DNA of 31,860 bases from a virus (taxonomy: Duplodnaviria; Heunggongvirae; Uroviricota; Caudoviricetes), in IMG/VR virus record IMGVR_UViG_2778261226_000007; one strand, 5' to 3'. Position numbers and translations under genes: made by a program. The notes under the pieces are model-generated. The model was not told the DNA's origin and did no database searches. It was given only the letters and a program-made list of their open reading frames with translations. This document shows, piece after piece, positions 409-31,860 of this stretch. Each line of letters opens with the position of its first letter. The first letter of the stretch is position 1.

Positions 409-764
409 CAGTGAGTGACCTCTTCAAAGGTACAGTTAAAATCGGTATACATGGCATTATCCGAAATGCTCCACTCCCTGCAGACAACCCGGACAGTCCT
501 GTTGTGTTTTGGCGGGCGCCACAAAAAAGCACGAATCCCGGCATGACGGGATAAAAAACTGTCCAGCGCGGCACGGGAGTATTCATCTGTGACACGAAAT
601 ACCGGTTTAAACGTTTTCAGATCCGCATTCAGCCCACCAGCCCGTCGCTGTTCATATCCGTCACCAAACTTTACCGTAATAACTGATGGCTTTCGTGTCG
701 TCTCCATCCCCTCACGGGGGATCCAGTTAAAAACTTCAGGCTCAGGCACTGTATAATCCTCCAT
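408..764 (-). CDS. Minor tail protein M (lambda gpM-like)
   Basis: Contains FGDGYEQRRAGGLNADLKT and SFLWRPP, resembling lambda gpM, and lies between the tape measure and gpL genes. Start is ambiguous: MEDYTV at 764 or METTRK at 707 (the latter has a GAGGGG RBS). Confidence 0.7.
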   Translation of the reverse strand: MEDYTVPEPEVFNWIPREGMETTRKPSVITVKFGDGYEQRRAGGLNADLKTFKPVFRVTDEYSRAALDSFLSRHAGIRAFLWRPPKHNRTVRVVCREWSISDNAMYTDFNCTFEEVTH

Positions 765-3700
765 CCCGACGCGATGACTGCATAATTGACACAACCCTGC
801 TGTCGATCAGATCCACCAGTCCCCTGGCTGAGCGCGTATCTATCTCGCCATTGCTCCCTTGATTCTGAATGCTAATGTGATACACGGGAGAATAAACAAA
901 TCCACCGCCACCATTCACATTGCCAATGGCTCTGACCCCAAGAGAGCCGTCCGCTGCCCGTGTCAGTGGCATGATAGCTTCAGGCCCGGCCTCGCCCATC
1001 AGCCCGGCACCTTTCGCAAAAGCAAAATACGTCGGTGTATCCACAATAGTGTTACTGTAAGCACTCAGATTTGCCGATGTGTAAACACCACCTTTTGCGT
1101 TTGCCACCGCCCCCGAAATCCATCCGCCGACCGTACCAAGCCACCCTCCGGCACCGGAGAGTGACTTCAGTCCGTTAACAATGGCCGCATTCATCAGAAT
1201 TTTTGAAACTTCCCGGAGAACTGAACTCCCCCAGTTCCTCCACTCCACAACATTCCCGGCCAGTGCATCGGAAATATTTGATACCAGCCCGTCCATCGTG
1301 GAAACAACAGCATCTGCCGCCTGTGAAGCATAATCGGTGGCACTGTCTGCCCAGTTGGTCAGTCCCTCCTGGAGTCCGGCATTCCAGTTATTACGTAAAG
1401 CATCGGCCTTTGCATAATAATCCTGCTGATCGCTGAGACGCTCTTCCAGATATTTTTTATTCAGTTCTTTCTCCTGTTTCCACAGGGCTTCTTCAATTTC
1501 TCCGGCCTGATACTGTCTCAGCAGCTCGTTATTTTTCTGCTCAAACTCATGCCGGATACTCCACATTTCCTGGAGTCGTTCACGCATCCGTGAGCCTTCA
1601 CCATATCCCAGCAACTGCGCGTCGTCAGATGCCCGGGCACTGGCATTACTGTCCGCCAGACTGCTTTCATACGCGGCAAGCTGCTCACGAATCTTTTTCT
1701 GGTCGATGAGTGCTGCATTCTGCAAAAGCGTTTTTTTCTGCGCTTCTGACAGGGTTGATAATTCGCCCTGACTGACCTGATATTTCATCTTAGCCAGTTC
1801 AGTATTCTGCCCTGCCAGTGCTATCTGTTCTTTTTGCTGTTTAATCAGCCGTTTATAAATATCTTCTGTTTTTTCCGCTTCGGTCTTTTTATGCGCTTTG
1901 GGTTTATTTGCCTGGTTATTTCGCCAGGCATCCAGTGAGTTATTGATATAATTCTGTCTGGCTGTCCGATACGCCTCTCCCACAAAGCCGAGATCATCCG
2001 CAGCATAGCCCAGTCGGGCACGCTCACGCGCTTCCCCCTTAAGGCGGGACAGAGCCAGTTCGCGCTTGCTGTTATTCAGTGCGGTCTGCTGTTTATCATC
2101 CAGAGTTGCCTGTGGTAGCCGTAACGGTACATTCACCAGCCCCTGTCGCTGCTGAAGTAATTCATTACCAAGCCCGAGAAGGCGATTAAACTCGGTATGC
2201 TTCCCATTCATGATCAACAGGGACTGATACGCTTTGTTTTGTTCCGCTGCCTGTTGACGGATCAACGCCACTCGTCGCTCCTCCAGCCCGGCAAGCACAT
2301 CCTGAATGGATTGCGCTTTGCCCTGCATTTGTGTGAGACGGGACTGTTCAACTGCCAGTTGATTTGTTGCTTCTGCAAGCCCTTTAAGGATGATTTCAGC
2401 ACCAGAACCACTCTGCGAACTTTCATCAAGCCAACGTTGATAATCAGCAATTTGATTTTTCAGTCCGCGAATTTTTCCTTCCTGTTCGTTAATCAGGCGA
2501 TTTTGTTCCTCCAGTGCCTGCCGCGTCTTTTCCTCATTATCTGACGCTTCAGGAAGCGACATTGCCGACGTTTTCTGACGAATTTCGTCGATTGTTGCGG
2601 CATACTGGCGTGCAGATTCTCTGGCCTGCTCCTGATTCTGATACATCGTGTACCAGGCCGTCGCCCCCAGCATGACGAGTCCCGGCACACCACCAACCAG
2701 CCCCAGCGCACCACTTAATAAACGACTCCCCACTGACGTGACAGTATTCAGCGTTGTCTGTGCTGCTGTTCTGGCCGCAATATTACGGGTAAGTGATGCC
2801 TGGGCAGCAGCCAGTTTCGCTTCTGCGGCTGCCTGTCTTTCAGTACCACGGGTAGCCGCGACCGCCTGTTGCGCACGATAAACCGCCGCACGCGCCCTGG
2901 CGGTTGCTATCTGCGTCCCCCGGAGCTGCGCTTCCGCAAGAGCTACTTCGTTTCTGGCTGCAGTAATTAATCCGGCAGTTGCAGATCCAGCAGAAGATGC
3001 CATATTGCCAAAATATCGGGCTACCCCGACGGCAACCAGAGCACCGGCAGCGGTTGCCACAGTGTCAATATTGCCTGCAATACCATTCAGCACACCGGAG
3101 AGCGTCTTCGTCACTCCGCTTGCTTCGTTCGCACCACCAACCCAGGCCATAAAGGCGTTTTCAACTTTGGTTGCAGAGGATGAAACCGTATCAGGCATTG
3201 CTGCATATTCATCACGCAACGCCCCAAGCTGACTAATCAGTGCAGGAACAACCTTATCGGCGGTCAACTTTCCGTTATCCGCCATGGCCTTCAGATCCTT
3301 ACGGGCAACACCCATTCCCGCAGCCAGCGCACGAATAACACGATCGCCGTTCTCATTCACAGAGTTAAATTCTTCACCGCGCAGCACTCCCTGCGCCAGT
3401 GCCTGACTGAACTGCGTGATCACCGAACTGGCTTCTGCTGCACTGGCACCGGATAATTTCAGGCCCGTGGAGATAGCCTCGGTGACTTTCAGTACCTCCT
3501 CAGAACTGTAGCCATACTCCCGCATGGAAGCTGCAGAGCGGGCAAAAAGGCTGGCGTTATCAGAAAACGCCGTTCCCGTTCTCTGGCTGATTGCCATTAA
3601 TTCACGTTGTGATACCTGAAAATCATCAGTGGACTGTGAGGCCTGCTTCAGACGGGCATTTACTGAATTCCACTCATCGGCGAGAGAAATAAGATGACCG

Positions 3701-3942
3701 GTAGCAAAAGCCCCGGCAAATGCCCCCGCCATATTCAGTGCCGAAGATTTAGCTGTATTTATCTGATCCGTCACTTCTGCCAGTGCACGCCGCATTTCAC
3801 GGGATGCAGCAGCGGACTGCCGGCCTCCGTTCTGCATGGTACGGTAGTAATCCTGCCCCATACGCGAAGCCCGGGAGATCTCTGACTGGAATGACCGGGA
3901 ATTTGCCGAGATTTTAATAATCAGCTCACGTAATGTCGCCAT
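742..3942 (-). CDS. Tail tape measure protein
   Basis: 1066-aa ORF with long Ala/Gln-rich coiled-coil stretches, located directly after the tail assembly chaperone pair as in lambda/HK97 tail modules. Confidence 0.9.
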   Translation of the reverse strand: MATLRELIIKISANSRSFQSEISRASRMGQDYYRTMQNGGRQSAAASREMRRALAEVTDQINTAKSSALNMAGAFAGAFATGHLISLADEWNSVNARLKQASQSTDDFQVSQRELMAISQRTGTAFSDNASLFARSAASMREYGYSSEEVLKVTEAISTGLKLSGASAAEASSVITQFSQALAQGVLRGEEFNSVNENGDRVIRALAAGMGVARKDLKAMADNGKLTADKVVPALISQLGALRDEYAAMPDTVSSSATKVENAFMAWVGGANEASGVTKTLSGVLNGIAGNIDTVATAAGALVAVGVARYFGNMASSAGSATAGLITAARNEVALAEAQLRGTQIATARARAAVYRAQQAVAATRGTERQAAAEAKLAAAQASLTRNIAARTAAQTTLNTVTSVGSRLLSGALGLVGGVPGLVMLGATAWYTMYQNQEQARESARQYAATIDEIRQKTSAMSLPEASDNEEKTRQALEEQNRLINEQEGKIRGLKNQIADYQRWLDESSQSGSGAEIILKGLAEATNQLAVEQSRLTQMQGKAQSIQDVLAGLEERRVALIRQQAAEQNKAYQSLLIMNGKHTEFNRLLGLGNELLQQRQGLVNVPLRLPQATLDDKQQTALNNSKRELALSRLKGEARERARLGYAADDLGFVGEAYRTARQNYINNSLDAWRNNQANKPKAHKKTEAEKTEDIYKRLIKQQKEQIALAGQNTELAKMKYQVSQGELSTLSEAQKKTLLQNAALIDQKKIREQLAAYESSLADSNASARASDDAQLLGYGEGSRMRERLQEMWSIRHEFEQKNNELLRQYQAGEIEEALWKQEKELNKKYLEERLSDQQDYYAKADALRNNWNAGLQEGLTNWADSATDYASQAADAVVSTMDGLVSNISDALAGNVVEWRNWGSSVLREVSKILMNAAIVNGLKSLSGAGGWLGTVGGWISGAVANAKGGVYTSANLSAYSNTIVDTPTYFAFAKGAGLMGEAGPEAIMPLTRAADGSLGVRAIGNVNGGGGFVYSPVYHISIQNQGSNGEIDTRSARGLVDLIDSRVVSIMQSSRRDGGLYSA

Positions 3943-3991: not shown

Positions 3992-4333
3992 TTATTGGCA
4001 AAACAACTTATATTTTTCCATACTGCTTGGATCATGATCATTAACAATTGTTACAGTCCCATGACTCTTAACTTTTCCATCCACAACTTCCAAATAAACA
4101 AAATATGGCTTTTTCCCTGTATATCCACCAAACGTGTTTTTTGAATTAACATCACCACAAACATAACCATATAAATCACCTGACTTATGAAAAAAAGAAT
4201 TAAATTTTGCACTATCAGGATCAATAAGCTTATCTTTAACTAAGTTTTCCCCTAAAGAAATAACATAATTATCTGATGGCTTACATGCACTAATAAAAAA
4301 CAAACAAGCTAATGTCACCACTGATTTTCTCAT
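3992..4333 (-). CDS. Small lipoprotein (moron-like insertion in the tail module)
   Basis: Start MRKSVVTLACLFFISAC gives a signal peptide plus lipobox Cys, with an AGGAGG RBS. The segment is visibly AT-rich compared with flanking tail genes. Confidence 0.6.
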   Translation of the reverse strand: MRKSVVTLACLFFISACKPSDNYVISLGENLVKDKLIDPDSAKFNSFFHKSGDLYGYVCGDVNSKNTFGGYTGKKPYFVYLEVVDGKVKSHGTVTIVNDHDPSSMEKYKLFCQ

Positions 4334-4391
4334 GATTAATCCTCCTGACTTTGAGTAAAGCATTCAATTTCAAAACGATTAAAAAATTATC

Positions 4392-4693: not shown

Positions 4694-5080
4694 CTACTTT
4701 TTTTTAACCTCGCCGGCATCACTGATCAGTTCCAGAGACTGCCGAAGAAGCCGCGCATGCACCGGGCCATACACGGCAATCACCTGTTCACGATCATCCT
4801 CTGAAAATACAGGTTGCAGTCCGGTATCACACAGAACATCAATGAACAGTTCAACATCTGCCTCCAGATTTCGGCGGGCGCGCTCCGCAACGGATAACGG
4901 TGTCTCATCATCTTTTGCTTTAACGATCTCCTGCCAGCGCAACCAGGCTTCTGCAGAAGGTTCCCGTAATACAACCGTTGCCCCTTCCCATTCAGGCACA
5001 TCAACAGTTTTATGGCGAAACCCCGACATCGTTGCCAGAGCCAGATTACGGATATTTTTAGTCATCACACCCATCCTCAT
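4694..5080 (-). CDS. Tail assembly chaperone (lambda gpG-like)
   Basis: Sits directly downstream of the major tail protein gene and ends in the slippery run ...GEVKKK*. Its start overlaps the major tail stop (TAATG). Confidence 0.7.
   Translation of the reverse strand: MRMGVMTKNIRNLALATMSGFRHKTVDVPEWEGATVVLREPSAEAWLRWQEIVKAKDDETPLSVAERARRNLEADVELFIDVLCDTGLQPVFSEDDREQVIAVYGPVHARLLRQSLELISDAGEVKKK
4697..4703 (-). promoter_or_regulatory. Programmed -1 ribosomal frameshift slippery heptamer (A AAA AAG)
   Basis: Minus strand reads G GTT AAA AAA AAG TAG at the end of the G-like ORF. A -1 slip continues as KKVALPG into the 4392..4682 ORF. Confidence 0.65.
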
Positions 5081-5784
5081 TAACTGACGGTTACAGTGCA
5101 GGAAGTGGAGGTCACTTTGTTAACCGGGCTTGCTGAATCAGAAATCTCGCAGGTATATGCGCCCGCATCACCGGATACTGCCAATGCCTTACTGAACGTT
5201 GCCGCCGTCTGTCCGGAAACAGGAGAACTACCTTTCTTCCAGACATAAGAATAAGGCGGCACACCACCGGCAGCCTCAACCACCATTTCGAGTTTCGCTC
5301 CGGCAGAAACCTGCAGCGTGCTGTTTAAATCGACCTTCACTTTCAGCGGCTCTGTCGTCAGCACAGGTTTACCTTTCAGGCGCAGGGAAAACGTTGCAGC
5401 CACAACACCATTGGTTCCTGCAGACCAGGTATGCTGACGCACCTCTGCCATAAAGGTAAATCCGTTTCCTGACGGAAAAATAACTTTAAAGCCATACGTG
5501 GTGTCATTGTCATAGGCACTGCGCAACGCGTTCTGGGCAGCATTGAGGTAAAAGTTGCCTGACATGGAAATCTCTGACGCGGCACCAAGACCGTTAATAT
5601 TTTCCTGCTCAACAGAACACAGCGTGGTGACATCAATATCCTGCTTTTGTCCTGCGGTAAACTGCACCTCTTTGATTGTACAGCTCAGGCCAAGATAGCT
5701 GGCAGAATCCAGGGTTTCTGCTGTTACCGGTGCAGACGAAATCATAATTTTCGTCAGTTGCGAACGCTCAAAATTAGAGGACAT
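5080..5784 (-). CDS. Major tail protein with C-terminal Ig-like domain
   Basis: 234-aa ORF upstream of the chaperone pair. The C-terminal ~80 aa (PYSYVWKKGSS...AYTCEISDSASP) looks like a Big_2/Ig-like decoration domain common on phage major tail proteins. Confidence 0.75.
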   Translation of the reverse strand: MSSNFERSQLTKIMISSAPVTAETLDSASYLGLSCTIKEVQFTAGQKQDIDVTTLCSVEQENINGLGAASEISMSGNFYLNAAQNALRSAYDNDTTYGFKVIFPSGNGFTFMAEVRQHTWSAGTNGVVAATFSLRLKGKPVLTTEPLKVKVDLNSTLQVSAGAKLEMVVEAAGGVPPYSYVWKKGSSPVSGQTAATFSKALAVSGDAGAYTCEISDSASPVNKVTSTSCTVTVS

Positions 5785-6635: not shown

Positions 6636-6970
6636 ACATTCCCCTTCAGGCTGCAGAGTATTTCAAGCCGGGTGGTGCGTGCATCCGGTATTGGTGGCCC
6701 TTCTATACCAAGAATGGCTCCTTTGAATGCACCGGTCAGCACTTTCAGACGTGAAGCTGCCGTCACATCGCGTCGGAATCTCATCCAGACTCTGACCGTA
6801 GCCTGAGCGGTTTCTGCACCTCCTGATATTCTCTCCCTCCCGCTGATACCCTTAACTTCTGCCCATACGGTAGCTCCCTCCGTCACCGTCTCCACCGGAT
6901 GCCCTGACGGAGAGCGGGCGGTGGTGACATTCAGAATAGTTACGCGATCACGTAATCTGCCCGCCTGCAT
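6632..6970 (-). CDS. Head closure / head-tail adaptor protein
   Basis: Position downstream of the gp6-like connector in the HK97-like order. Confidence 0.6.
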   Translation of the reverse strand: MQAGRLRDRVTILNVTTARSPSGHPVETVTEGATVWAEVKGISGRERISGGAETAQATVRVWMRFRRDVTAASRLKVLTGAFKGAILGIEGPPIPDARTTRLEILCSLKGNV

Positions 6971-6978
6971 GGTTCCTC

Positions 6979-7296
6979 CTACAAAGGAATAAAACGATAA
7001 GGCTCCAGCAGAGAAGAAAAACCAAACGGGACTGGTGCCTTGCTGACATCTGAGGAATTTTCCCGGTTTTCGTACCAGTGTCCGACCAGCAACATGAGCG
7101 CCAACAAAACATCATCAGCTATAAGCACCCCTTCAGGATCACCTTCCGGCACCATCTCCTCATAAAGCTTACGGTTGATAAAATTTTCTGCCTTGCGGCA
7201 GGCAGCCCGGAAATACAGCATCAGTAACTCATCATCAGTTGCATCATCTGTATCAATACGGCACTGCGCCCTGAGTTTTTCCACTATTGCTGCCAT
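6979..7296 (-). CDS. Head-tail connector protein (gp6-like)
   Basis: Lies immediately downstream of the major capsid gene. Start taken at MAAIVEKL, which has an AGGAG RBS. Confidence 0.6.
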   Translation of the reverse strand: MAAIVEKLRAQCRIDTDDATDDELLMLYFRAACRKAENFINRKLYEEMVPEGDPEGVLIADDVLLALMLLVGHWYENRENSSDVSKAPVPFGFSSLLEPYRFIPL

Positions 7297-13029: not shown

Positions 13030-13380
13030 TCAGTTGATGCGTTCACGCGCTGTTTTCTCTTTGTGGCAGGGCCAGCACAGACTCTGCAGGTTGCTGTTTG
13101 CGTCTGTTCCGCCATGCGCTTTCGGGATGATGTGGTCGACAGTTTTCGCCTCGCTCACCACACCGACACGCAGACACAACTGACACAGACCTTTATCGCG
13201 CTTCAGAATACGGGCACGAATCACCGTCCATTTTGAGCCATAGCCACGCTGGTGGCGGCTCAGTCCGCGCTGGTGCTGCACCCAGCCTTCACCGCGATGC
13301 TTATCGCAGTAACCCGAACTGTCTGTTGTTGTGCCTGCACATCCACGCTTACGACAGGCGCGGGGTATTCGTGATGGCAT
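13030..13380 (-). CDS. HNH endonuclease
   Basis: Cys-rich ORF with HNH-type motifs (CQLC...DHIIPKAHGG...N...CWPCH), in the usual HK97-like position just upstream of the terminase genes. Confidence 0.85.
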   Translation of the reverse strand: MPSRIPRACRKRGCAGTTTDSSGYCDKHRGEGWVQHQRGLSRHQRGYGSKWTVIRARILKRDKGLCQLCLRVGVVSEAKTVDHIIPKAHGGTDANSNLQSLCWPCHKEKTARERIN

Positions 13381-13441
13381 TGGAATCTCCTTAATACCGG
13401 CATTATCGCAGCCCCTCGCTGAAGGGCTGCTGTAATGCCTG

Positions 13442-13744
13442 TTACTCAGTAACGACTGCGCCTTCCGGTAATTTCATACCTGCAAATACCGGACAACCAG
13501 GATGACGAGCATCTTCTGTTGCTTCCAGCATTGACTCACCAAACCACTCCGTCGTGGCGCGACCATCAGCAGCTTTGTAGTGGAGTAAGTACTGGTTTTC
13601 GCCATCCGCATACTGCGCGCGGGCTTTAACCTCACCCCATTCATCACTGATGCGCATCTCCACCAGTTGAGACAACTCAAACTTAAACGGAACAGCAGCG
13701 GCACCAATTGCAACCGGTTTGTTTTCTGTTTTTTCCATCATCAT
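13442..13744 (-). CDS. Hypothetical phage protein
   Basis: 100-aa ORF with a GGAG RBS, preceded by a terminator-like hairpin. Confidence 0.45.
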   Translation of the reverse strand: MMMEKTENKPVAIGAAAVPFKFELSQLVEMRISDEWGEVKARAQYADGENQYLLHYKAADGRATTEWFGESMLEATEDARHPGCPVFAGMKLPEGAVVTE

Positions 13745-13754
13745 CTCCAGATAT

Positions 13755-13778
13755 AAAAAAGCCCCGCATTTGCGGGGC
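13755..13778 (-). terminator. Intrinsic-terminator-like hairpin
   Basis: Minus strand: gccccgcaaatgcggggc followed by tttttt. Confidence 0.5.
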
Positions 13779-13800
13779 TACAAACAGGCATCACAGCCAG

Positions 13801-14016
13801 TTAGCTAAGTCCGACAGACATAAAATCATCACTACCTAAACGATGGGAACCATAACGAACTTCATACTCCCCATTCAATTCAGAGCGTTTAGACTTTGCG
13901 CCATCCTCCGTTGCATAAATGCCGACCAGATGCCAGGGTTTGTCACGTACTACAGCCCAACCAAGAACCCATCCCTGATTATCAGGATCAGCCTTCAGGT
14001 TATTTTCTACAAACAT
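13801..14016 (-). CDS. Hypothetical protein
   Basis: Start taken at MFVENN, which has an AGGAGA RBS. Confidence 0.4.
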   Translation of the reverse strand: MFVENNLKADPDNQGWVLGWAVVRDKPWHLVGIYATEDGAKSKRSELNGEYEVRYGSHRLGSDDFMSVGLS

Positions 14017-14056
14017 AGTGTTCTCCTTTTGGGTACCCAGAGACATTCTATGTCAT

Positions 14057-14281
14057 TCATGAAACAGGCAACAACGTGGCCGTTACAATCCCCGCCATAT
14101 TTGCGTTCAGATCACATTCAACAGAAATTTCTTCATCCGTGGCATCCACTTCATATGTCCGGGAATAACACTCCGTGCATTTACCACTGAAGATATCCTT
14201 AACCAGAACACGTCCACGCTGCAAAACCCTGAATGGAATCGTTCCGTTAAAGGGCTTTACGGTTACCAGTAATCTCTTCAT
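14057..14281 (-). CDS. Hypothetical small protein
   Basis: Start taken at MKRLLVTV, which has a GGAGGGG RBS. The longer ORF-track version is probably an upstream extension. Confidence 0.35.
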   Translation of the reverse strand: MKRLLVTVKPFNGTIPFRVLQRGRVLVKDIFSGKCTECYSRTYEVDATDEEISVECDLNANMAGIVTATLLPVS

Positions 14282-14454
14282 ATCCCCTCCGGATAAAAAT
14301 GCCCCTTGCCGCCCGGGCTGTTGTTCAAAGTTCATCCTGATTCGGCAAGATTCAGAATGTATAAGACAAATTGGCACACACAGCAGAATTTCATGCTTTC
14401 TGGACGCTGGCGCATCCTTCATTTTTCAGCGAAATATTCTGCTCTTACGGGCGA

Positions 14455-14637
14455 TCAGCTCTGCAGACACTGTCGAACACCGTCGACAATTTCGCAGACC
14501 TGAGAAGCCGTATCGAAAAGCTGGCGCGCCTTATCCAGGCTGACGCACCCCACCAATAAAAAAGGCACCAGTATCGCTACCAGTGCCCATTTTGCCGCCG
14601 CTCGCGGCATTCTGTGTGTCCGGTGTTTTCGGCTCAT
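14455..14637 (-). CDS. Small putative lipoprotein
   Basis: Signal peptide plus lipobox (ALVAILVPFLLVGC). Immediately preceded by an unlisted 36-aa hydrophobic ORF at about 14638..14748. Confidence 0.3.
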   Translation of the reverse strand: MSRKHRTHRMPRAAAKWALVAILVPFLLVGCVSLDKARQLFDTASQVCEIVDGVRQCLQS

Positions 14638-14884
14638 ATCACCACCAACGCACAGCCCAAATCAGAACAGCGACCGCCACAAGGCGAATTGCAAAGGCCG
14701 CAGCCCTTGTCAAATCAAGGCTCGCGGGAGTTTCCACTTCAATACCTTTCATAATGGACAACCTCAAAAAGAATCTTTTATACTTTCCCACGAGGATTTT
14801 CTCCGTACTCACTACTCACAATTTCCTCTTTGACGTGAAAACTAAAAACCCCGGACTGTTCCAGCAGCTGGGGTTTTGTTTTTT

Positions 14885-15166
14885 TTATTTACTGGTATGA
14901 GTACGGCATTTAGCTATTTCATCCCGGGCTTTACTGTCTCCGCGACAGATACAACGAACCGTGTCACCCGCCAGCGTGGTGATGTAGGCTTCATCCGTTT
15001 TTTCCACCGAAATGCATGGTACATTGCCATCCCGGCAATACTCCACTTGGGCAGCAAGGTGAGTGTTGCGCGGGTAAAATTCCAGGCGATACATATTCCC
15101 CAGAACATGCACTTCTTCAACCTGACGCCCATCTTCCATTACCGTGATTTTTTTCAGTGCGTACAT
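14885..15166 (-). CDS. Hypothetical protein
   Basis: Start taken at MYALKK with a GGAGGT RBS; flanked by terminator-like hairpins on both sides. Confidence 0.4.
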   Translation of the reverse strand: MYALKKITVMEDGRQVEEVHVLGNMYRLEFYPRNTHLAAQVEYCRDGNVPCISVEKTDEAYITTLAGDTVRCICRGDSKARDEIAKCRTHTSK

Positions 15167-15197
15167 ACGTACCTCCGTTCTTTCGTTTTTTGAGCAA

Positions 15198-15219
15198 TAA
15201 AAAAGCCGCTCATGGCGGC
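15198..15219 (-). terminator. Intrinsic-terminator-like hairpin after the endolysin gene
   Basis: Minus strand: gccgccatgagcggc followed by tttttt. Confidence 0.5.
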
Positions 15220-15236
15220 CCTGTATGTTCTGCAAG

Positions 15237-15620
15237 CTATCGTTTCAACTGAAAGTGAGGCCCATCCTTTAATGACCGCCACTCACCGCCCCATTCGATG
15301 GGGGTATTCAGCTCTTTCGCTGCCTGCTTAAATGCCTGCGCGATTTTCTCGTACAGAGGCCAGTCCCATGACACCTGGCTGCCAACCCAGGCAACAACAT
15401 CCACCGCATCACCGGTCAGGTGGCGGCTGTTCATGGTCTGGCTTTTCCCTTCCGCGACCAGCTGTTTCTGGCGTTCTTTCGTGCGCAGCCCTTCCGTAAT
15501 ACCGAAATCAACCTCCGTCAGCTCCAGCGCACGGCGAACGACAGCAACCAGCTGTGGTTTAACGCCCTCCAGATTCTTTTCGCTGCGACGACTGAATCTG
15601 AATTTACCCGACATATTCAC
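15237..15620 (-). CDS. Endolysin, peptidase M15 family (L-alanyl-D-glutamate peptidase type)
   Basis: 127 aa; SRHLTGDAVDVV looks like an M15 zinc-binding motif. Last gene of the lysis cassette, with its start overlapping the upstream membrane protein stop. Confidence 0.7.
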   Translation of the reverse strand: MNMSGKFRFSRRSEKNLEGVKPQLVAVVRRALELTEVDFGITEGLRTKERQKQLVAEGKSQTMNSRHLTGDAVDVVAWVGSQVSWDWPLYEKIAQAFKQAAKELNTPIEWGGEWRSLKDGPHFQLKR

Positions 15621-15892
15621 CTCAACAATGGAAAGATTTTTGTGACGTTCCCGCGTGCGCGTATCACCAGCACGCAGAACAGCAGGTTAAAAAACACTTC
15701 CAGCCAGCCCGTTGCTAACGGGCGACCACACAGATAGCTGAGGGGCGCAAAGGCATACAGCAGCATCAGCAACCAGGCCAGCCATGACATCAGCGGTTTA
15801 TGTCTGGAATCACGACGACGATAAAAAAAGAGCGTCAGCACGATAACCGTGCATAACGCCACATTCAGCAATCCGGGAAGGTTACTTAACAT
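15617..15892 (-). CDS. Small membrane protein in the lysis cassette (holin/antiholin-like)
   Basis: 91 aa, two or three hydrophobic segments, GGAGGAGG RBS. Overlaps the upstream holin-like ORF and is ATGA-coupled to the endolysin. Confidence 0.5.
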   Translation of the reverse strand: MLSNLPGLLNVALCTVIVLTLFFYRRRDSRHKPLMSWLAWLLMLLYAFAPLSYLCGRPLATGWLEVFFNLLFCVLVIRARGNVTKIFPLLR

Positions 15893-16274
15893 TGCCGCCT
15901 CCTCCACCCCGCAGGCGGGAGAACAGGCCGGACACCAGCGATGCAATATCCTGCTGGTGGATGAACGAGAGAATCTTCACCGACACCACGGCCACCAGCA
16001 CCGCACACAGTGCATCCGCCGATGTACCGTCATAACCTGTTTTTGATGCAATCCAGGCTGACAGCACATGCGCACCCAGCACGCCAACGATAAACGACAC
16101 CAGAAAATGCGCCGCCACACGCCAGGCTGAAAGCGCCTGCGGCATCGTTGCCACAAATAACGCCCCAGCGAACGCCCCAAACACAATCCCGAAATCCGTT
16201 CCGGTAAACAGCCCGAATACCGTCGCCCCGCCGAGCGCCGCAGCCGTACCGGAACCGGACAAGGGTTCAGACAT
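15882..16274 (-). CDS. Putative holin
   Basis: 130 aa with several Gly/Ala-rich hydrophobic helices. Start taken at MSEPLSG with an AGGAGA RBS. First gene after a terminator hairpin. Confidence 0.5.
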   Translation of the reverse strand: MSEPLSGSGTAAALGGATVFGLFTGTDFGIVFGAFAGALFVATMPQALSAWRVAAHFLVSFIVGVLGAHVLSAWIASKTGYDGTSADALCAVLVAVVSVKILSFIHQQDIASLVSGLFSRLRGGGGGNVK

Positions 16275-16292: not shown

Positions 16293-16314
16293 AAAAAAGG
16301 GCCACTGTCGGCCC
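16293..16314 (-). terminator. Intrinsic terminator immediately upstream of the lysis cassette (tR'-like position)
   Basis: Minus strand: gggccgacagtggccc followed by tttttt, about 20 nt before the holin RBS. Confidence 0.55.
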
Positions 16315-16404
16315 GTAAAAAAACAACACCCCGTCAAAGGCACCCGCAGATACCTTTTGTGTGGTGTTATCTGATGTGATGTGCGCCGGACGTGGCGCGG
16401 ATAT

Positions 16405-16428
16405 AAAAAAGGCCCGCCGCAGCGAGCC
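16405..16428 (-). terminator. Terminator-like hairpin after the AraC-family gene
   Basis: Minus strand: ggctcgctgcggcgggcc followed by tttttt. Confidence 0.45.
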
Positions 16429-16453
16429 TGTTTTCAATGAGTGCAAAATTCAA

Positions 16454-17197
16454 TTATTCTTGAGTAACACTTAAACTCATCTCATTGAATGCAGCCATCC
16501 TGTAACCTGCCGGTGTAACACCAAAATAACTCCTGAATACGCTGATAAAATAAGATGTAAAATTATAGCCACACTGAGCAGCGATTCTGTTGATGGCGCA
16601 ACGAGATTGATTCAACAGCATTGCTGCCATTCTCATTCTCTCTGTAAGCAACAACTCACTGAAACAGGTGCCTTCTTCTTTCAGTCTTTTTTTTAACAAA
16701 CTTTCACTGATACATAACCGCGAAGACACATCTCTCAGAGTCCAGTTTGCTGCAATGTCCGTACGAAACAATGCACTAAGCCTGTCACTAATATTGCCAA
16801 TACACGCGGTCAGAAACGACGAAAACATTTTCTCTGATGAGAAAAACGCCAGACACGAAAAGGAAAGCATTTCCGCTAAATTGTCCGTATGAATCTTTTC
16901 CTCACAAAGATAATCAATCAGGATGCCCATCAATTCTGCCTTGGGAAAACTCACGCAAAGATATCGTGGTATTTGCCGGACTAAAACTACATCCTGTTTT
17001 TCGTCTCCACACAACAGGTAACGGATAATTGTCGATTCACTGAGACTTATTCGCCGAAAACATTCCGAAAAGGGCAATAACGATCCAGCTCCCCCCCTGA
17101 CAAGAAGTGCACTACCACTTTCCAGAGAGAGCTCTTTTCCTTCAAAGAGCACAACAAACGGGGAATGAACAAAAACAACAGAACAAGCTTCATTCAT
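16454..17197 (-). CDS. AraC-family transcriptional regulator (AT-rich cargo gene between Q and lysis genes)
   Basis: C-terminal AraC-type double HTH region. Segment is visibly AT-rich; start taken at MNEACSVV. Confidence 0.8.
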   Translation of the reverse strand: MNEACSVVFVHSPFVVLFEGKELSLESGSALLVRGGAGSLLPFSECFRRISLSESTIIRYLLCGDEKQDVVLVRQIPRYLCVSFPKAELMGILIDYLCEEKIHTDNLAEMLSFSCLAFFSSEKMFSSFLTACIGNISDRLSALFRTDIAANWTLRDVSSRLCISESLLKKRLKEEGTCFSELLLTERMRMAAMLLNQSRCAINRIAAQCGYNFTSYFISVFRSYFGVTPAGYRMAAFNEMSLSVTQE

Positions 17198-17319
17198 ATC
17201 AATTGCCCTGACATTACTGGTCACAAGATAAGTATATATCGATTTACAAAAATACAAGCCGAAAGACCAGTATTCGCAACCACCAGCGCGTTTAACGTCC
17301 TGTACCGTTTTTCAGGCAT

Positions 17320-17342
17320 AAAAAAACCCGCTCAGTGGCGGG
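17320..17342 (-). terminator. Intrinsic-terminator-like hairpin between the ORF6N gene and the AraC-family gene
   Basis: Minus strand: cccgccactgagcggg followed by ttttttt. Confidence 0.5.
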
Positions 17343-17420
17343 TTTAAGCTGTTTGGCGTAGTAACCACTCTTAACAGGATATTCAACTTTTTACGATCGT
17401 AAAGCGTTCGGGGAAAATTT

Positions 17421-17909: not shown

Positions 17910-18182
17910 AGGATGATCCTTTTTCTATGTGAATCATCACCACTGCTGACGCCAATCAGTATGGTGGTGAACTGTGCAGGGTTGGCGTAACCGGGAAAAA
18001 GGAACCGGCGCGGATCGCTCCGCCCCCACACAGCCCACCATTGAGATGTGACAGTGCAAACGACAATAAAAAAGACGCTGGCGCGTCTGTTGTCGCCTTT
18101 TTCATCCGGGACGCCAATCCCGACGCCAGATTTTGCTGGCGCGTGAGGAATATAGCCCCGGACAATGTGTCTGGTCAAGCTC
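17910..18182 (-). promoter_or_regulatory. Leader module C: promoter, short terminated transcript and structured region upstream of the ORF6N gene, directly after Q
   Basis: Minus strand has TTGACC (18178-18173), an 18-nt spacer and TATATT (18154-18149); a hairpin plus U6 (gacgcgccagcgtcTTTTTT, 18066-18087); and a GCGA tetraloop hairpin (18010-18023). Homologous at nucleotide level to modules A and B. Confidence 0.55.
18067..18141 (-). ncRNA. Candidate short leader RNA C (~75 nt, promoter to intrinsic terminator)
   Basis: Inferred from the promoter and terminator positions; predicted internal hairpins (gccag/cuggc, cggga/ucccg). Start and end are approximate. Confidence 0.35.
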
Positions 18183-18578
18183 CTACATGATTCGTTCTAC
18201 GTATCTGTCCATCTCCAGTCGGATATCAAGCATCATCAACATGCCATCAATAACCCCTTCCGCTTTCTGCAGGCGCTTGCCAATACAGGTATCCGAACAC
18301 CCATGCTTTCGTGCCAACCCCATAAAAGTCATTCCACCTACGTAATAATCCACCAACAAATCGTGCAAATCCTGATTTTTCTTGTTCAACCGGGCCATAC
18401 AGCCACAAATTATCATTGCATCATCATCAGAACACTGAGGGCGTGATTTCACTTTCGGCGGGATTAATCCTTTAAAACCAGCAGCGATTGACGCCCATGA
18501 CACATCTTCGTGATTGTTCGCAGCCCATGATCCCCACCGCTCCATAACCTGCTGAATATCACGCACCATCGTTATCAC
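18183..18578 (-). CDS. Late-gene antitermination protein Q family
   Basis: 131 aa, Cys-containing, in the lambdoid position after RusA and before the late region. Assignment by recalled similarity to Q-family proteins. Confidence 0.65.
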
Positions 18579-23222: not shown

Positions 23223-23534
23223 GGTGACAGCCCCTATGTTGAATTCAATGAACTCACCACCAAGGCTTTCCACGACCATATAGGTGGTGAGACGTACAGG
23301 GGTGGAAATACCGGTCAACATAGAACCCGGCCCAACCGAAGTTGGCCCTGCACGCCCCACCATAATTTGGGCGTAACGATGCTCATGACACGAAAAAACC
23401 GCATGAGCGCGGTTGTGCTCTATATTGAATTTCGGGTTTCCACGCCCGGCCCCCGCTTTATAAGGTGCAGAGACAGTGTAACGTCCCAAAAGTGCAGAAT
23501 CAATATGTTGGCGAATCATGGGCGCACCTCCCAT
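23223..23534 (-). promoter_or_regulatory. Leader module B: promoter, short terminated transcript and structured region upstream of Rha copy B
   Basis: Minus strand has TTGATT (23503-23498), a 17-nt spacer and TACACT (23480-23475); a hairpin plus U6 (ccgcgctcatgcggTTTTTT, 23393-23412); and a UUCG-loop hairpin (23329-23347). Confidence 0.55.
23393..23468 (-). ncRNA. Candidate short leader RNA B
   Basis: Inferred from promoter and terminator positions; approximate ends. Confidence 0.35.
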
Positions 23535-23877: not shown

Positions 23878-24192
23878 TGATGGCAGCCTCCGTATGCAAT
23901 GGATAACTTCCACCACCGGAAACGCCAATTTCGCTGGTGGTGAACTGAGCAGGGTTGGCGTAACCGGCGCATACGGAAACCGGCGCACCTTTCGGTGCCC
24001 CCACCCAGCCCACCATAATTTGGGTATAGCTGAGTTGTAGCAACAAAAAAGACGCTAACGCGCCAATTGTCGCCGTATGCAATTCCAGGACGCCAATCCC
24101 GGCACCCGCTTTATAAGGTGCTGGAACAGTGTAACGTCCCGAAATTGCAGAATCAATATGTTGGTTGCGGATCATTTTGTACCTACTCGCCG
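23878..24192 (-). promoter_or_regulatory. Leader module A: promoter, short terminated transcript and structured region upstream of Rha copy A
   Basis: Minus strand has TTGATT (24156-24151), a 17-nt spacer and TACACT (24133-24128); a hairpin plus U6 (24044-24064); and a GAAA tetraloop hairpin gcaccGAAAggtgc (23985-23998). Confidence 0.55.
24045..24120 (-). ncRNA. Candidate short leader RNA A
   Basis: Inferred from promoter and terminator positions; approximate ends. Confidence 0.35.
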
Positions 24193-30246: not shown

Positions 30247-30254
30247 GGTAATAC

Positions 30255-30491
30255 ATGGGCAATGTGATTCAACTGGCTCCCAATGAATGGGTTTGTGAAA
30301 GCGTTCTTATCGCAATTACCGGGCTCAAACCTGGCACAATTCTCCGAGCCCGGAAAGAATGCTGGATGGTAGGAAGAGAGTATATTCACGTATCGCCAGA
30401 CGGTAATCCAAAACCTTCCAGTGAATGTATGTATAACAGAAAAGCAATAGATGCCTGGGTCTCTTCAATGAAAAACAAACAACCTGGGTGA
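30255..30491 (+). CDS. Putative excisionase-like protein
   Basis: 78-aa protein immediately upstream of the integrase; resembles small excisionase-like proteins of E. coli cryptic prophages. Confidence 0.5.
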   Translation: MGNVIQLAPNEWVCESVLIAITGLKPGTILRARKECWMVGREYIHVSPDGNPKPSSECMYNRKAIDAWVSSMKNKQPG

Positions 30492-30546
30492 TTTAATACC
30501 ATGAAATATGTAAGCTCGTATCGCTCTTGGGCGTCTGGAGGTATCA

Positions 30547-31860
30547 ATGGATAAAGTCAAATATCCAACAGGCGTCGAAAACCACGGCGGCACATTACGC
30601 ATCTGGTTTAATTTTAAAGGTAAACGTGTCAGGGAAAATCTTGGTGTCCCTGACACTGTCAAGAACAGGAAGATCGCCGGAGAGCTGCGGACATCTGTAT
30701 GTTTTGCCATTCGTACAGGAAACTTTGATTATGCTGCGCAGTTCCCTGACTCTCCTAACCTCAAGGCTTTTGGGGTAAATAAAAAAGAAATTACGGTGAA
30801 AGAACTTGAAGAAAAGTGGCTGGATCTGAAACGCATGGAAATCTCTGCAAATGCATTCAATCGCTATAAATCCGTTGCAAGAACGATGGTTCCGAAAATT
30901 GGAGATAGCAGACTGGTGTCAACGGTGACCAAAGAGGAATTGCTGTATATCAGGAAAGATTTGCTGACCGGATACCAAAATCCAACAAAAGGTAAAGCTC
31001 GAGTAAAAGGACGAAGCGTTGTCACAGTAAATTATTACATGACGACAATCGCTGGAATGTTCCAGTTTGCTGCAGATCACGGTTACTTAGAAGCAAATCC
31101 CTTCGAGAGAATTAAGCCTCTTAAAAAAGCCAGGGCAGAGCCAGATCCGCTAACTCGTGACGAATTTATTCGCCTGATAGATGCTTGCCGGCATCAGCAG
31201 ACAAAAAACCTGTGGTCATTGGCTGTGTACACAGGAATGCGTCATGGTGAACTGGTCTCCCTGGCCTGGGAAGATATCGATCTGAAAGCAGGAACAATTA
31301 CTATCAGGCGCAATTATACGAAACTCGGTGAGTTCACTCTACCTAAAACTGAAGCAAGTACAAACAGGGTTGTGCATCTTATCCAGCCCGCTATCAGTGT
31401 CCTGAAAAATCAGGCTGAAATGACAAGACTGGGTAAGCAGCACCACATCAAGGTGCAACTACGTGAATATGGACGTTCAGTGAATCATGAATGTACTTTC
31501 GTATTTAACCCCCAGGTGGTTAGAAAAAGCAAACAGGTAGGTTTTATCTACAAGGTAGATTCCATTGGCGACTCATGGGAAACAGCCATTAAGCGTGCTG
31601 GCATCAGGTATCGAAAGGCATACCAGTCACGACACACTTATGCGTGCTGGTCATTATCTGCCGGAGCAAATCCAAGCTTCATTGCCAGCCAGATGGGCCA
31701 TGCAAGTGCCCAGATGGTGTTCAATGTATACGGAGCATGGATGACTGACAGCAATGCAGAACAGATCGCCATGCTGAATCAGAAGCTGGCAGATTATGTC
31801 CCAATGATGTCCCATAGTCACCAAAGTGACACAAGAGGTCTATTAAAATCAGTAAGTTAG
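30547..31860 (+). CDS. Tyrosine integrase (phage integrase family)
   Basis: 437 aa with the C-terminal catalytic region (SRHTYACWSL...HASAQMVFNVYGAWM; His, Arg and Tyr). Complete: the TAG stop occupies the last three bases of the window. Confidence 0.9.
   Translation: MDKVKYPTGVENHGGTLRIWFNFKGKRVRENLGVPDTVKNRKIAGELRTSVCFAIRTGNFDYAAQFPDSPNLKAFGVNKKEITVKELEEKWLDLKRMEISANAFNRYKSVARTMVPKIGDSRLVSTVTKEELLYIRKDLLTGYQNPTKGKARVKGRSVVTVNYYMTTIAGMFQFAADHGYLEANPFERIKPLKKARAEPDPLTRDEFIRLIDACRHQQTKNLWSLAVYTGMRHGELVSLAWEDIDLKAGTITIRRNYTKLGEFTLPKTEASTNRVVHLIQPAISVLKNQAEMTRLGKQHHIKVQLREYGRSVNHECTFVFNPQVVRKSKQVGFIYKVDSIGDSWETAIKRAGIRYRKAYQSRHTYACWSLSAGANPSFIASQMGHASAQMVFNVYGAWMTDSNAEQIAMLNQKLADYVPMMSHSHQSDTRGLLKSVS

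Follow-up and report, generated by a model that had tools for sequence, protein, structure and literature searches.

Regulators of the AraC family that are carried by prophages (PatE, PsrA/PsrB and AppY) are an established route by which phages rewire acid resistance and type III secretion in Escherichia coli. PatE activates gadE, gadBC and hdeAB and lowers the transcripts of the LEE (locus of enterocyte effacement; reviewed in PMC10877973). PsrA and PsrB raise GadE and YhiF and thereby repress LEE type III secretion, and PsrB binds the hdeA and gadE promoters (PMC10877973). AppY, encoded by DLP12, directly activates gadE, and AppY, YdeO, GadW and GadX converge on gadE and the AR2 genes (PMC10057817). 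For the prophage-borne members PsrA, PsrB, PatE and AppY, these effects were seen in lysogens that had not been induced (PMC10877973, PMC10057817). Here we describe a gene of this kind in a 31,860-nucleotide stretch of phage DNA (IMG/VR record IMGVR_UViG_2778261226_000007, Caudoviricetes), referred to below as the window, where it lies between the late-gene antiterminator gene Q and the lysis genes of a lambdoid prophage. We consider it probable that the gene is a moron (in the Hendrix/Juhala sense) in the Q-lysis slot, and that its product acts in trans on host promoters, gadE and hdeA being the likely targets.

The initial annotation had presented the element as an AT-rich AraC-family gene, flanked by terminator hairpins and carried as cargo between Q and the lysis cassette, and each of these points is borne out (Table 1). 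The gene is encompassed by a minus-strand open frame at 16454-17257 in the list of open reading frames (ORFs), and the C-terminal ~100 residues of the product match the Pfam helix-turn-helix (HTH) families HTH_18 (1.4e-13; 51.3 bits, cutoff 33.6) and HTH_AraC (4e-13; 49.6 bits, cutoff 26.6). Both domains fall at residues 178-253 of the 267-residue ORF, giving the two HTH motifs that define the AraC/XylS family, and the family's invariant residues are all present in the alignment. The true start is almost certainly the ATG at 17197, which gives 247 residues: it is the RefSeq start of the identical gene (WP_001345622.1, a 744-nt coding sequence, CDS), and the N-terminus that it predicts, MNEACSV, fits the MxxxCSV start of the aligned relatives, GadX excepted. 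The TTG at 17257, which would give 267 residues, was rejected on the same two grounds. The CDS has a GC content of 41.7% (39.5% at third codon positions), compared with 49.1% for the whole window; measured in 200-bp steps, GC content is 40-45% across the regulator gene and 55-58% across the adjoining holin.

The position of the gene as cargo is well supported by three lines of evidence: an exchange of cargo with phage phiP27, the occurrence of the same cassette in other phage backbones, and the location of psrA in the same slot. E. coli chromosomes contain 100% matches to a 1050-bp query; in the best-matching chromosome, the matched segment is part of a phiP27-family prophage. phiP27 itself resembles the window prophage in the types of its replication module and in its lysis-region DNA (92% identical), and the Qs of the two, 48% identical, belong to one family. 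In phiP27, the interval between Q and the holin contains a GIY-YIG nuclease, a small regulator, a methyltransferase, two tRNAs and stx2eAB. Homology between the two phages covers 17392-17255 (the upstream terminator and ~70 bp beyond it), breaks off there, and begins again at 16370, on the upstream side of the holin; thus ~0.9 kb with the AraC gene replaces ~3.4 kb with the toxin. The two phages are of the same type and have kept the upstream junction and the holin leader of this interval while exchanging its cargo, a toxin in one case and a regulator in the other.

A ~970-bp cassette consisting of terminator, leader, gene and terminator (~17377 to 16406) recurs in no fewer than four further lambdoid backbones, each time following the Q position, including two pig-associated prophages (88-89% identity), a ground-beef isolate (98%) and one assembly in which it follows a lambda-type Q (PF03589; 88%). 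Homology to these backbones ends at 16377-16417, and the cassette is co-oriented with the late genes in every backbone compared. Its neighbours change each time (DUF6731 genes, an ompC porin, a DUF1133 protein, the PF03589 Q), and the protein at the Q position upstream is variously a QuuD-type Q, a divergent Q, the DUF1133 protein or the lambda-type Q, which together represent at least three unrelated groups. The gene has several marks of a moron: it is absent from the related phiP27, with sharp breaks at 17255 and 16370, its base composition deviates from that of the window and of the holin, and its own terminator, a hairpin and T-run at 16429-16410, moves with it. We propose that this self-contained cassette was inserted into a phiP27-like lambdoid prophage, with Q on one side and the lysis genes on the other, and that it would be exchanged among lambdoid phages by recombination at the conserved junction terminators.

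One of the bracketing terminators lies upstream of the gene and two lie downstream, all on the strand of the gene. The number of such sites is poor evidence by itself, since a scan of 2.8 kb gave 6 terminator-like sites compared with 3.3 ± 1.4 in shuffled sequence; each of these three, however, is a strong hairpin followed by a T-run and lies exactly at an intergenic junction. The interval singled out at the outset, 16293-17342, is delimited by the T-run of the terminator nearest the holin and by the stem of the upstream one. The holin-proximal terminator belongs to a conserved lysis-cassette leader common to phiP27, and the upstream terminator lies within a junction element of ~150 bp that is also found in phiP27 (85% identity), in Sakai Sp4 upstream of psrA (76.5%) and in DLP12 upstream of essD (85%). 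The terminators thus mark the edges of a shared cargo slot, and the fact that they are shared shows that the stx2e toxin and the regulator are interchangeable cassettes of that one slot. An apparent duplication of the cassette terminator around a tRNA-Gly insertion in a prophage of pig enterotoxigenic E. coli (ETEC) was discarded, the two copies being diverged and only one having a T-run.

The full gene is present in 65 of 5426 complete E. coli genomes (~1%), 42 of which carry it at ≥98% identity and 23 as a second allele at ~91%. The possibility that it is a decaying remnant without function is raised by two frameshifted copies (strains C3 and C7) and by shortened versions in the protein database. 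We regard this as extremely improbable: the 247-residue frame is intact in the remaining 63 genomes and in at least five phage backbones, no invariant residue of the family has been lost, and the pairwise dN/dS by the Nei-Gojobori method comes to 0.30 in comparison with the 90.7% allele (synonymous differences 31.5, non-synonymous 37.5) and to 0.11 in comparison with a 99% allele. The gene is under purifying selection and is not a pseudogene; a pseudogene was among the findings that the initial annotation had named as fatal to its reading. The two alleles differ in their hosts in a tally that covers complete genomes and is uncorrected for sampling, clonality and phylogeny: 27 of the 42 genomes with the ≥98% allele trace to cattle, buffalo, sheep meat or the farm environment and another 6 to humans, while the ~91% allele is found almost wholly in pig ETEC/O139 strains.

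A search against known prophage-encoded AraC regulators, suggested in the initial annotation, identified PatE, PsrA and AppY as relatives at 30-39% identity. The full-length identities (BLASTP, residues 1-232) are 39% to PatE, 36.5% to YdeO, 36% to GadW, 35% to PsrA and 30% to AppY, and the best curated full-length match is YdeO (residues 2-230 against 2-228 of 253 profile positions, 7.9e-43). Homology over the full length, N-terminal domain included, a size of ~240-250 residues and the MxxxCSV start place the protein in the clade of these regulators. In a neighbour-joining tree, the protein and relatives at 75-86% identity form a branch of their own beside the phage-borne group of PatE, PsrA and 1H12 gp67, and the protein is not an orthologue of PsrA/PsrB or PatE. 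The clade is small: in an exhaustive HMMER scan of 1.84 billion cluster representatives, only 8 clusters reached E≤1e-30, and at 50% identity the whole of this lineage falls into one cluster. The protein also matches PHROG 1450 from end to end (1.8e-55). A search of the accessible literature gave no mention of its accession or of its lineage. A chromosomal relative (39% identical; 5001-5729 of the stretch examined) lies ~1.1 kb from an HdeA-family gene (6834-7094), a neighbour that fits a link of the clade to acid-stress chaperone genes.

The presumed recognition helices, SESLLKKRLKEEG and TSYFISVFRSYFG, bear indirectly on the likely DNA targets. These are identical to those of PatE at 11/13 and 9/13 positions, to those of YdeO at 10/13 and 9/13, and to those of AppY at 10/13 and 8/13, with an overall range of 8-12/13 for the acid-resistance regulators; the corresponding values for Rns are 6/13 and 6/13. 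The best sequence match in the PDB is the DNA-binding domain of GadX (residues 135-237; 2e-22, or 3.6e-43 with the clade profile), followed by Rns (1.8e-17), CsvR and ToxT. Because the clade profile spans CsvR (15-234) and ToxT (23-233) nearly end to end, we assign the N-terminal half, on profile evidence, to the ToxT/Rns/CsvR type of regulatory domain; the C-terminal half is the predicted double HTH. This architecture is compatible with a different function, that of a virulence activator like Rns, CsvR or ToxT, perhaps controlled by fatty acids, which would switch on adhesin, fimbrial or toxin genes in livestock ETEC or Shiga toxin-producing E. coli (STEC). The AT-richness of the gene, typical of such regulators, and the near-confinement of one allele to porcine ETEC/O139 and of the other to ruminant or farm isolates agree with such a role. 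However, the nearest full-length relatives are YdeO, GadW and PatE rather than Rns, the recognition helices side with the acid-resistance clade, and no adhesin operon is linked to the gene in the contexts examined; we therefore judge a virulence activator of this type to be unlikely.

This leaves the question of how the gene would be expressed, and on what its product would act. In the lysogen, we propose that expression comes from a weak, probably H-NS-silenced promoter within the gene's own leader. A promoter scan of the leader (17198-17323) gave no match of 9/12 or better, and a relaxed scan gave two matches at 8/12, TTGTAT-15-TATACT and TTGCGA-19-TATTTT, with non-optimal spacers. The weakness of these matches, together with the AT-richness, fits a promoter of this type; weak promoters that are silenced by H-NS and respond to particular conditions are known for this regulator family. 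The regulator would then bind AT-rich sites at host promoters, most probably those of gadE and hdeAB, by analogy with every characterised member of the clade. Activation of these acid-fitness-island genes would raise acid resistance and, in strains that carry the LEE, type III secretion would be repressed indirectly. In a secondary mode, Q-modified polymerase would also transcribe the gene on induction, as expected from its co-orientation with the late operon and its position between the terminators of that operon; such induction-coupled expression by Q read-through is plausible.

The initial annotation had suggested that a regulator in this position could tie the expression of host genes to prophage induction. 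As a rival to our account, this would mean that the gene has no useful promoter of its own, is made mainly by Q read-through, and reprograms host transcription in the lytic cycle, for instance so that acid protection or metabolism is maintained up to lysis. Several observations agree with this: the gene is placed between the promoter after Q and the holin and is flanked on both sides by intrinsic terminators, its leader yielded no strong promoter, and it is co-oriented with the late genes in 8 of 8 contexts examined, representing three independent subfamilies. In addition, stx genes in the same slot are described as being expressed in this way (PMC8065619). The agreement in orientation is nevertheless not significant, since its chance probability in three independent lineages is 0.125. 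Moreover, the conserved 126-bp leader and the terminator move with the gene even where the upstream region differs, which suggests that the signals of the gene itself reside in the leader and is the behaviour expected of a moron whose expression is independent of the phage programme; phenotypes of its relatives PsrA, PatE and AppY are seen in cultures without induction; and a transcription factor that appears only minutes ahead of lysis could do little in the time left. Taken together, these points make it unlikely that read-through is the main source of the protein.

Our preferred account, a regulator expressed in the lysogen and acting on gadE and hdeAB, also has evidence that weighs against it. 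The protein is a relative and not an orthologue of any characterised member; for YdeO this follows from a score of 146.9 bits against the equivalog NF007407, whose cutoff is 348 bits. At 30-39% identity a regulon would not be confidently transferable. The promoter-like matches in the leader reach only 8/12, with spacers of 15 or 19 bp, and none is a convincing sigma-70 promoter, while co-orientation in all contexts also fits expression driven mainly by induction. Finally, the AlphaFold model, built from an alignment of 8 sequences, is poor (mean predicted local distance difference test score, pLDDT, 64.9; 38-62 in the N-terminal domain and <50 at residues 71-133); the domain assignment above was therefore taken only from a profile search of PDB sequences.

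The two modes of expression might also be combined. Different lambdoid phages have repeatedly placed regulators of this clade directly after Q, in the orientation of the late genes, and the placement itself may have been selected to give a low level in the lysogen and a Q-driven burst on induction. We offer this as a speculation that is more likely to be wrong than right by a wide measure. If true, it would amount to phage-timed reprogramming of the host's acid-stress and virulence regulon, and the two alleles, one from ruminants and farms and the other from pig ETEC, would be adaptations to host species.

The immediate neighbourhood of the gene is more complex than the initial annotation had indicated. 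Followed along the direction of transcription, in which the coordinates fall, the region comprises in turn a DnaC-like loader, a DnaB-like helicase, RusA, Q, the AraC cassette, two holins and an M15 endolysin. Q and the AraC gene are not adjacent, however: an isrK-like RNA, a C4 RNA and an ORF6N-domain gene, all absent from the initial annotation, intervene. The promoter just downstream of Q is the sole sigma-70-like one that the scan found between Q and the holin, and its predicted start coincides with the first base of the Rfam isrK match; it is a candidate isrK/late promoter, and may be the late promoter at which Q loads. An intrinsic terminator at 18088-18073 closes the isrK-like RNA; in this phage type, that RNA may be the equivalent of lambda 6S RNA or StxS, a short late transcript that ends at a terminator. 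The ORF6N protein matches PHROG 2379, 'anti-repressor' (2.6e-78, 1-163 of 187 positions), and the annotation pipeline PGAP labels a homologue of its gene as partial. In the antQ-isrK-anrP region of the Salmonella prophage Gifsy-1, part of the transcription from the isrK promoter passes the isrK terminator and continues into the anti-repressor gene (PMC4825925). The same order, Q, isrK RNA with terminator and anti-repressor-like gene, is found here.

The AraC gene adjoins this isrK-C4-ORF6N module and lies just upstream of the holin, a position that would suit a regulator directed at the phage itself, acting on the module, on the timing of lysis or on superinfection exclusion. Against this, the cassette occurs elsewhere without the module, beside DUF6731 genes, ompC, DUF1133 or a lambda-type Q and with different lysis cassettes, and related phages such as phiP27 do without the gene. 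We consider a phage-directed role very unlikely. A defence function was likewise dropped, as PADLOC gave no defence-system model match for the regulator.

Table 1. Coordinates of the regulator gene, the edges of its cassette and neighbouring features in the window
Feature	Position	Strand	Evidence and details
AraC/XylS-family regulator, 247 aa, PatE/PsrA/YdeO/GadW/AppY clade	16454..17197	-	GC 41.7%
126-bp leader	17198..17323	-	Moves with gene; kept with CDS in four backbones
Conserved late-region junction element, left edge of cargo slot	17255..17403	-	Contains terminator 17345-17324
Upstream intrinsic terminator	17345-17324	-	8-bp stem, -12.4 kcal/mol, z -3.2; within junction element
Cassette intrinsic terminator, right edge of mobile module	16410..16429	-	8-bp stem + T-run, -17.8 kcal/mol, z -4.3
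Second downstream terminator, just upstream of holin	16299..16314	-	-10.8 kcal/mol, z -2.7
Late-gene antiterminator Q, QuuD type	18183..18566	-	Pfam Phage_antitermQ PF06530, 5.6e-52; RefSeq annotation of matching genome
Sigma-70-like promoter TTGACC-18-TATATT	18149..18178	-	Promoter scan, 10/12 matches; start ~18142
isrK-like short RNA, overlapping c4-a1b1 target element	18068..18142	-	RF01394 79.4 bits (gathering 50); RF03163 52.2 bits
C4-type antisense RNA	17960..18045	-	RF01695 74 bits (gathering 45)
ORF6N-domain anti-repressor-like gene, 162 aa	17421..17909	-	Pfam ORF6N 1.2e-21
Lysis cassette	15237..16274	-	Holin 15882-16274 and second holin 15617-15892 (Phage_holin_8, PF16931; Phage_holin_3_7, PF05449); M15 endolysin 15237-15614 (Peptidase_M15_4)
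Second isrK-like/C4 pair	24045-24121 / 23933-24020	-	Rfam; early region
Third isrK-like/C4 pair	23392-23468 / 23280-23367	-	Rfam; early region

The window contains three isrK-like/C4 pairs in all, each on the minus strand and above the Rfam gathering score. The two in the early region lie upstream of ash/Rha-type genes, where the RefSeq CDSs appear to overrun the RNAs. The phage seems to carry three RNA-controlled anti-repressor modules of the P1-immI/Gifsy-1 type. No tRNA genes were found in the window, in contrast to phiP27, Sp4 and the pig-ETEC prophages, which have them in this slot.

For the greater part, the window is 98-99% identical to a prophage of E. coli E21845/O/A, the best-matching genome and the annotated one used for context; it differs from that prophage at the integrase end. 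The integrase of that prophage adjoins mlrA (positions 34169-36177 of the examined stretch), the site used by the Stx1 phage of O157. We rejected the identification of the window with this prophage at mlrA on account of the incomplete identity, ~1.2 kb of extra DNA and the different integrase end; the corresponding end of the window (30249-31860) has no megablast match to E21845/O/A, and this copy may occupy another site. The extra ~1.2 kb lies between the HNH gene and the endolysin (window 13380-15237) and holds several small ORFs, one of which (14455-14637) has a lipoprotein-like signal and is possibly a spanin. A second moron-like candidate is a 123-residue ORF at 3992-4363 on the minus strand, which has a lipoprotein-like signal (…LFFISAC) and matches PHROG 2320 (no function assigned). 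It is very AT-rich (31.6% GC in a 500-bp segment), with the tape-measure gene (742-3942) on one side and the tail chaperone genes on the other.

If the regulator does raise acid resistance, this would bear on the survival in the stomach of livestock-associated and food-borne E. coli and on the spread of regulators as phage cargo. The gene adds an uncharacterised and clearly separate lineage to the group of prophage regulators; this lineage is what is new, as the kind of gene and its location both have direct precedents. The results do not overturn current understanding, and their main value is twofold: they provide a clean case of exchange between a toxin and a regulator cassette, and they identify a candidate livestock-associated modulator of acid resistance.

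It is instructive to compare the locus with its precedents individually. PsrA and PsrB are prophage-encoded secretion regulators of O157:H7, psrA being ECs1087 in Sakai Sp4 and Z1789 in EDL933. Both belong to the same AraC/XylS clade, with alignment over the full length, and psrA occupies the slot described here: an 83%-identical Q and the same upstream junction element precede it, and in Sp4 its cargo segment, with the tRNAs, is followed by a terminator-like hairpin that matches the window terminator at 16429-16410. The two proteins are nevertheless well separated: PsrA is 35% identical to the window protein overall (27% in the N-terminal domain and 48% in the DNA-binding domain), whereas PsrA and PsrB are 90% identical to each other. 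In addition, psrA is followed by the ileZ-argN-argO tRNAs in a prophage that carries effectors and pch, while the window gene is carried by a phiP27-like phage of mostly non-O157 livestock strains. The annotated psrA CDS (ECs_1087, 195 residues; 13678-14391 of the Sp4 stretch) starts too late; the full frame opens with MVVVCSV and gives 237 residues that align with the whole family. HnrS, a prophage small RNA, raises psrA (PMC13502914), and we found no link between it and this locus.

PatE (Z0321/ECs0287, prophage CP-933H/Sp1) is the closest characterised relative: it is also prophage-borne, also has 247 residues, and is 39% identical over 234 of them, with 11/13 identical positions in the first recognition helix. 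It differs in its location, which is the tail-fibre end of a degraded prophage instead of the interval behind Q, and in belonging to a different subfamily of the tree. YdeO, GadW, GadX and AppY share the clade and the architecture, with 30-36.5% identity for YdeO, GadW and AppY; the genes for YdeO, GadW and GadX are chromosomal, and appY lies at the far end of DLP12. Rns, CsvR and ToxT have the same two-domain architecture by profile alignment and are more distant, being encoded on plasmids or islands and controlling pili and toxins. The position of the window gene is also matched by that of phage 1H12 gp67, a protein of the PHROG 1450 kind with no known function, whose gene has the same orientation and is flanked by an 82%-identical Q and by the holin; at 37% identity to the window protein, it represents a further subfamily. 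Elsewhere, the cargo between Q and the lysis gene S consists of stx, nmpC/ompC porins or tRNAs, and the regulator described here takes its place in the same slot.

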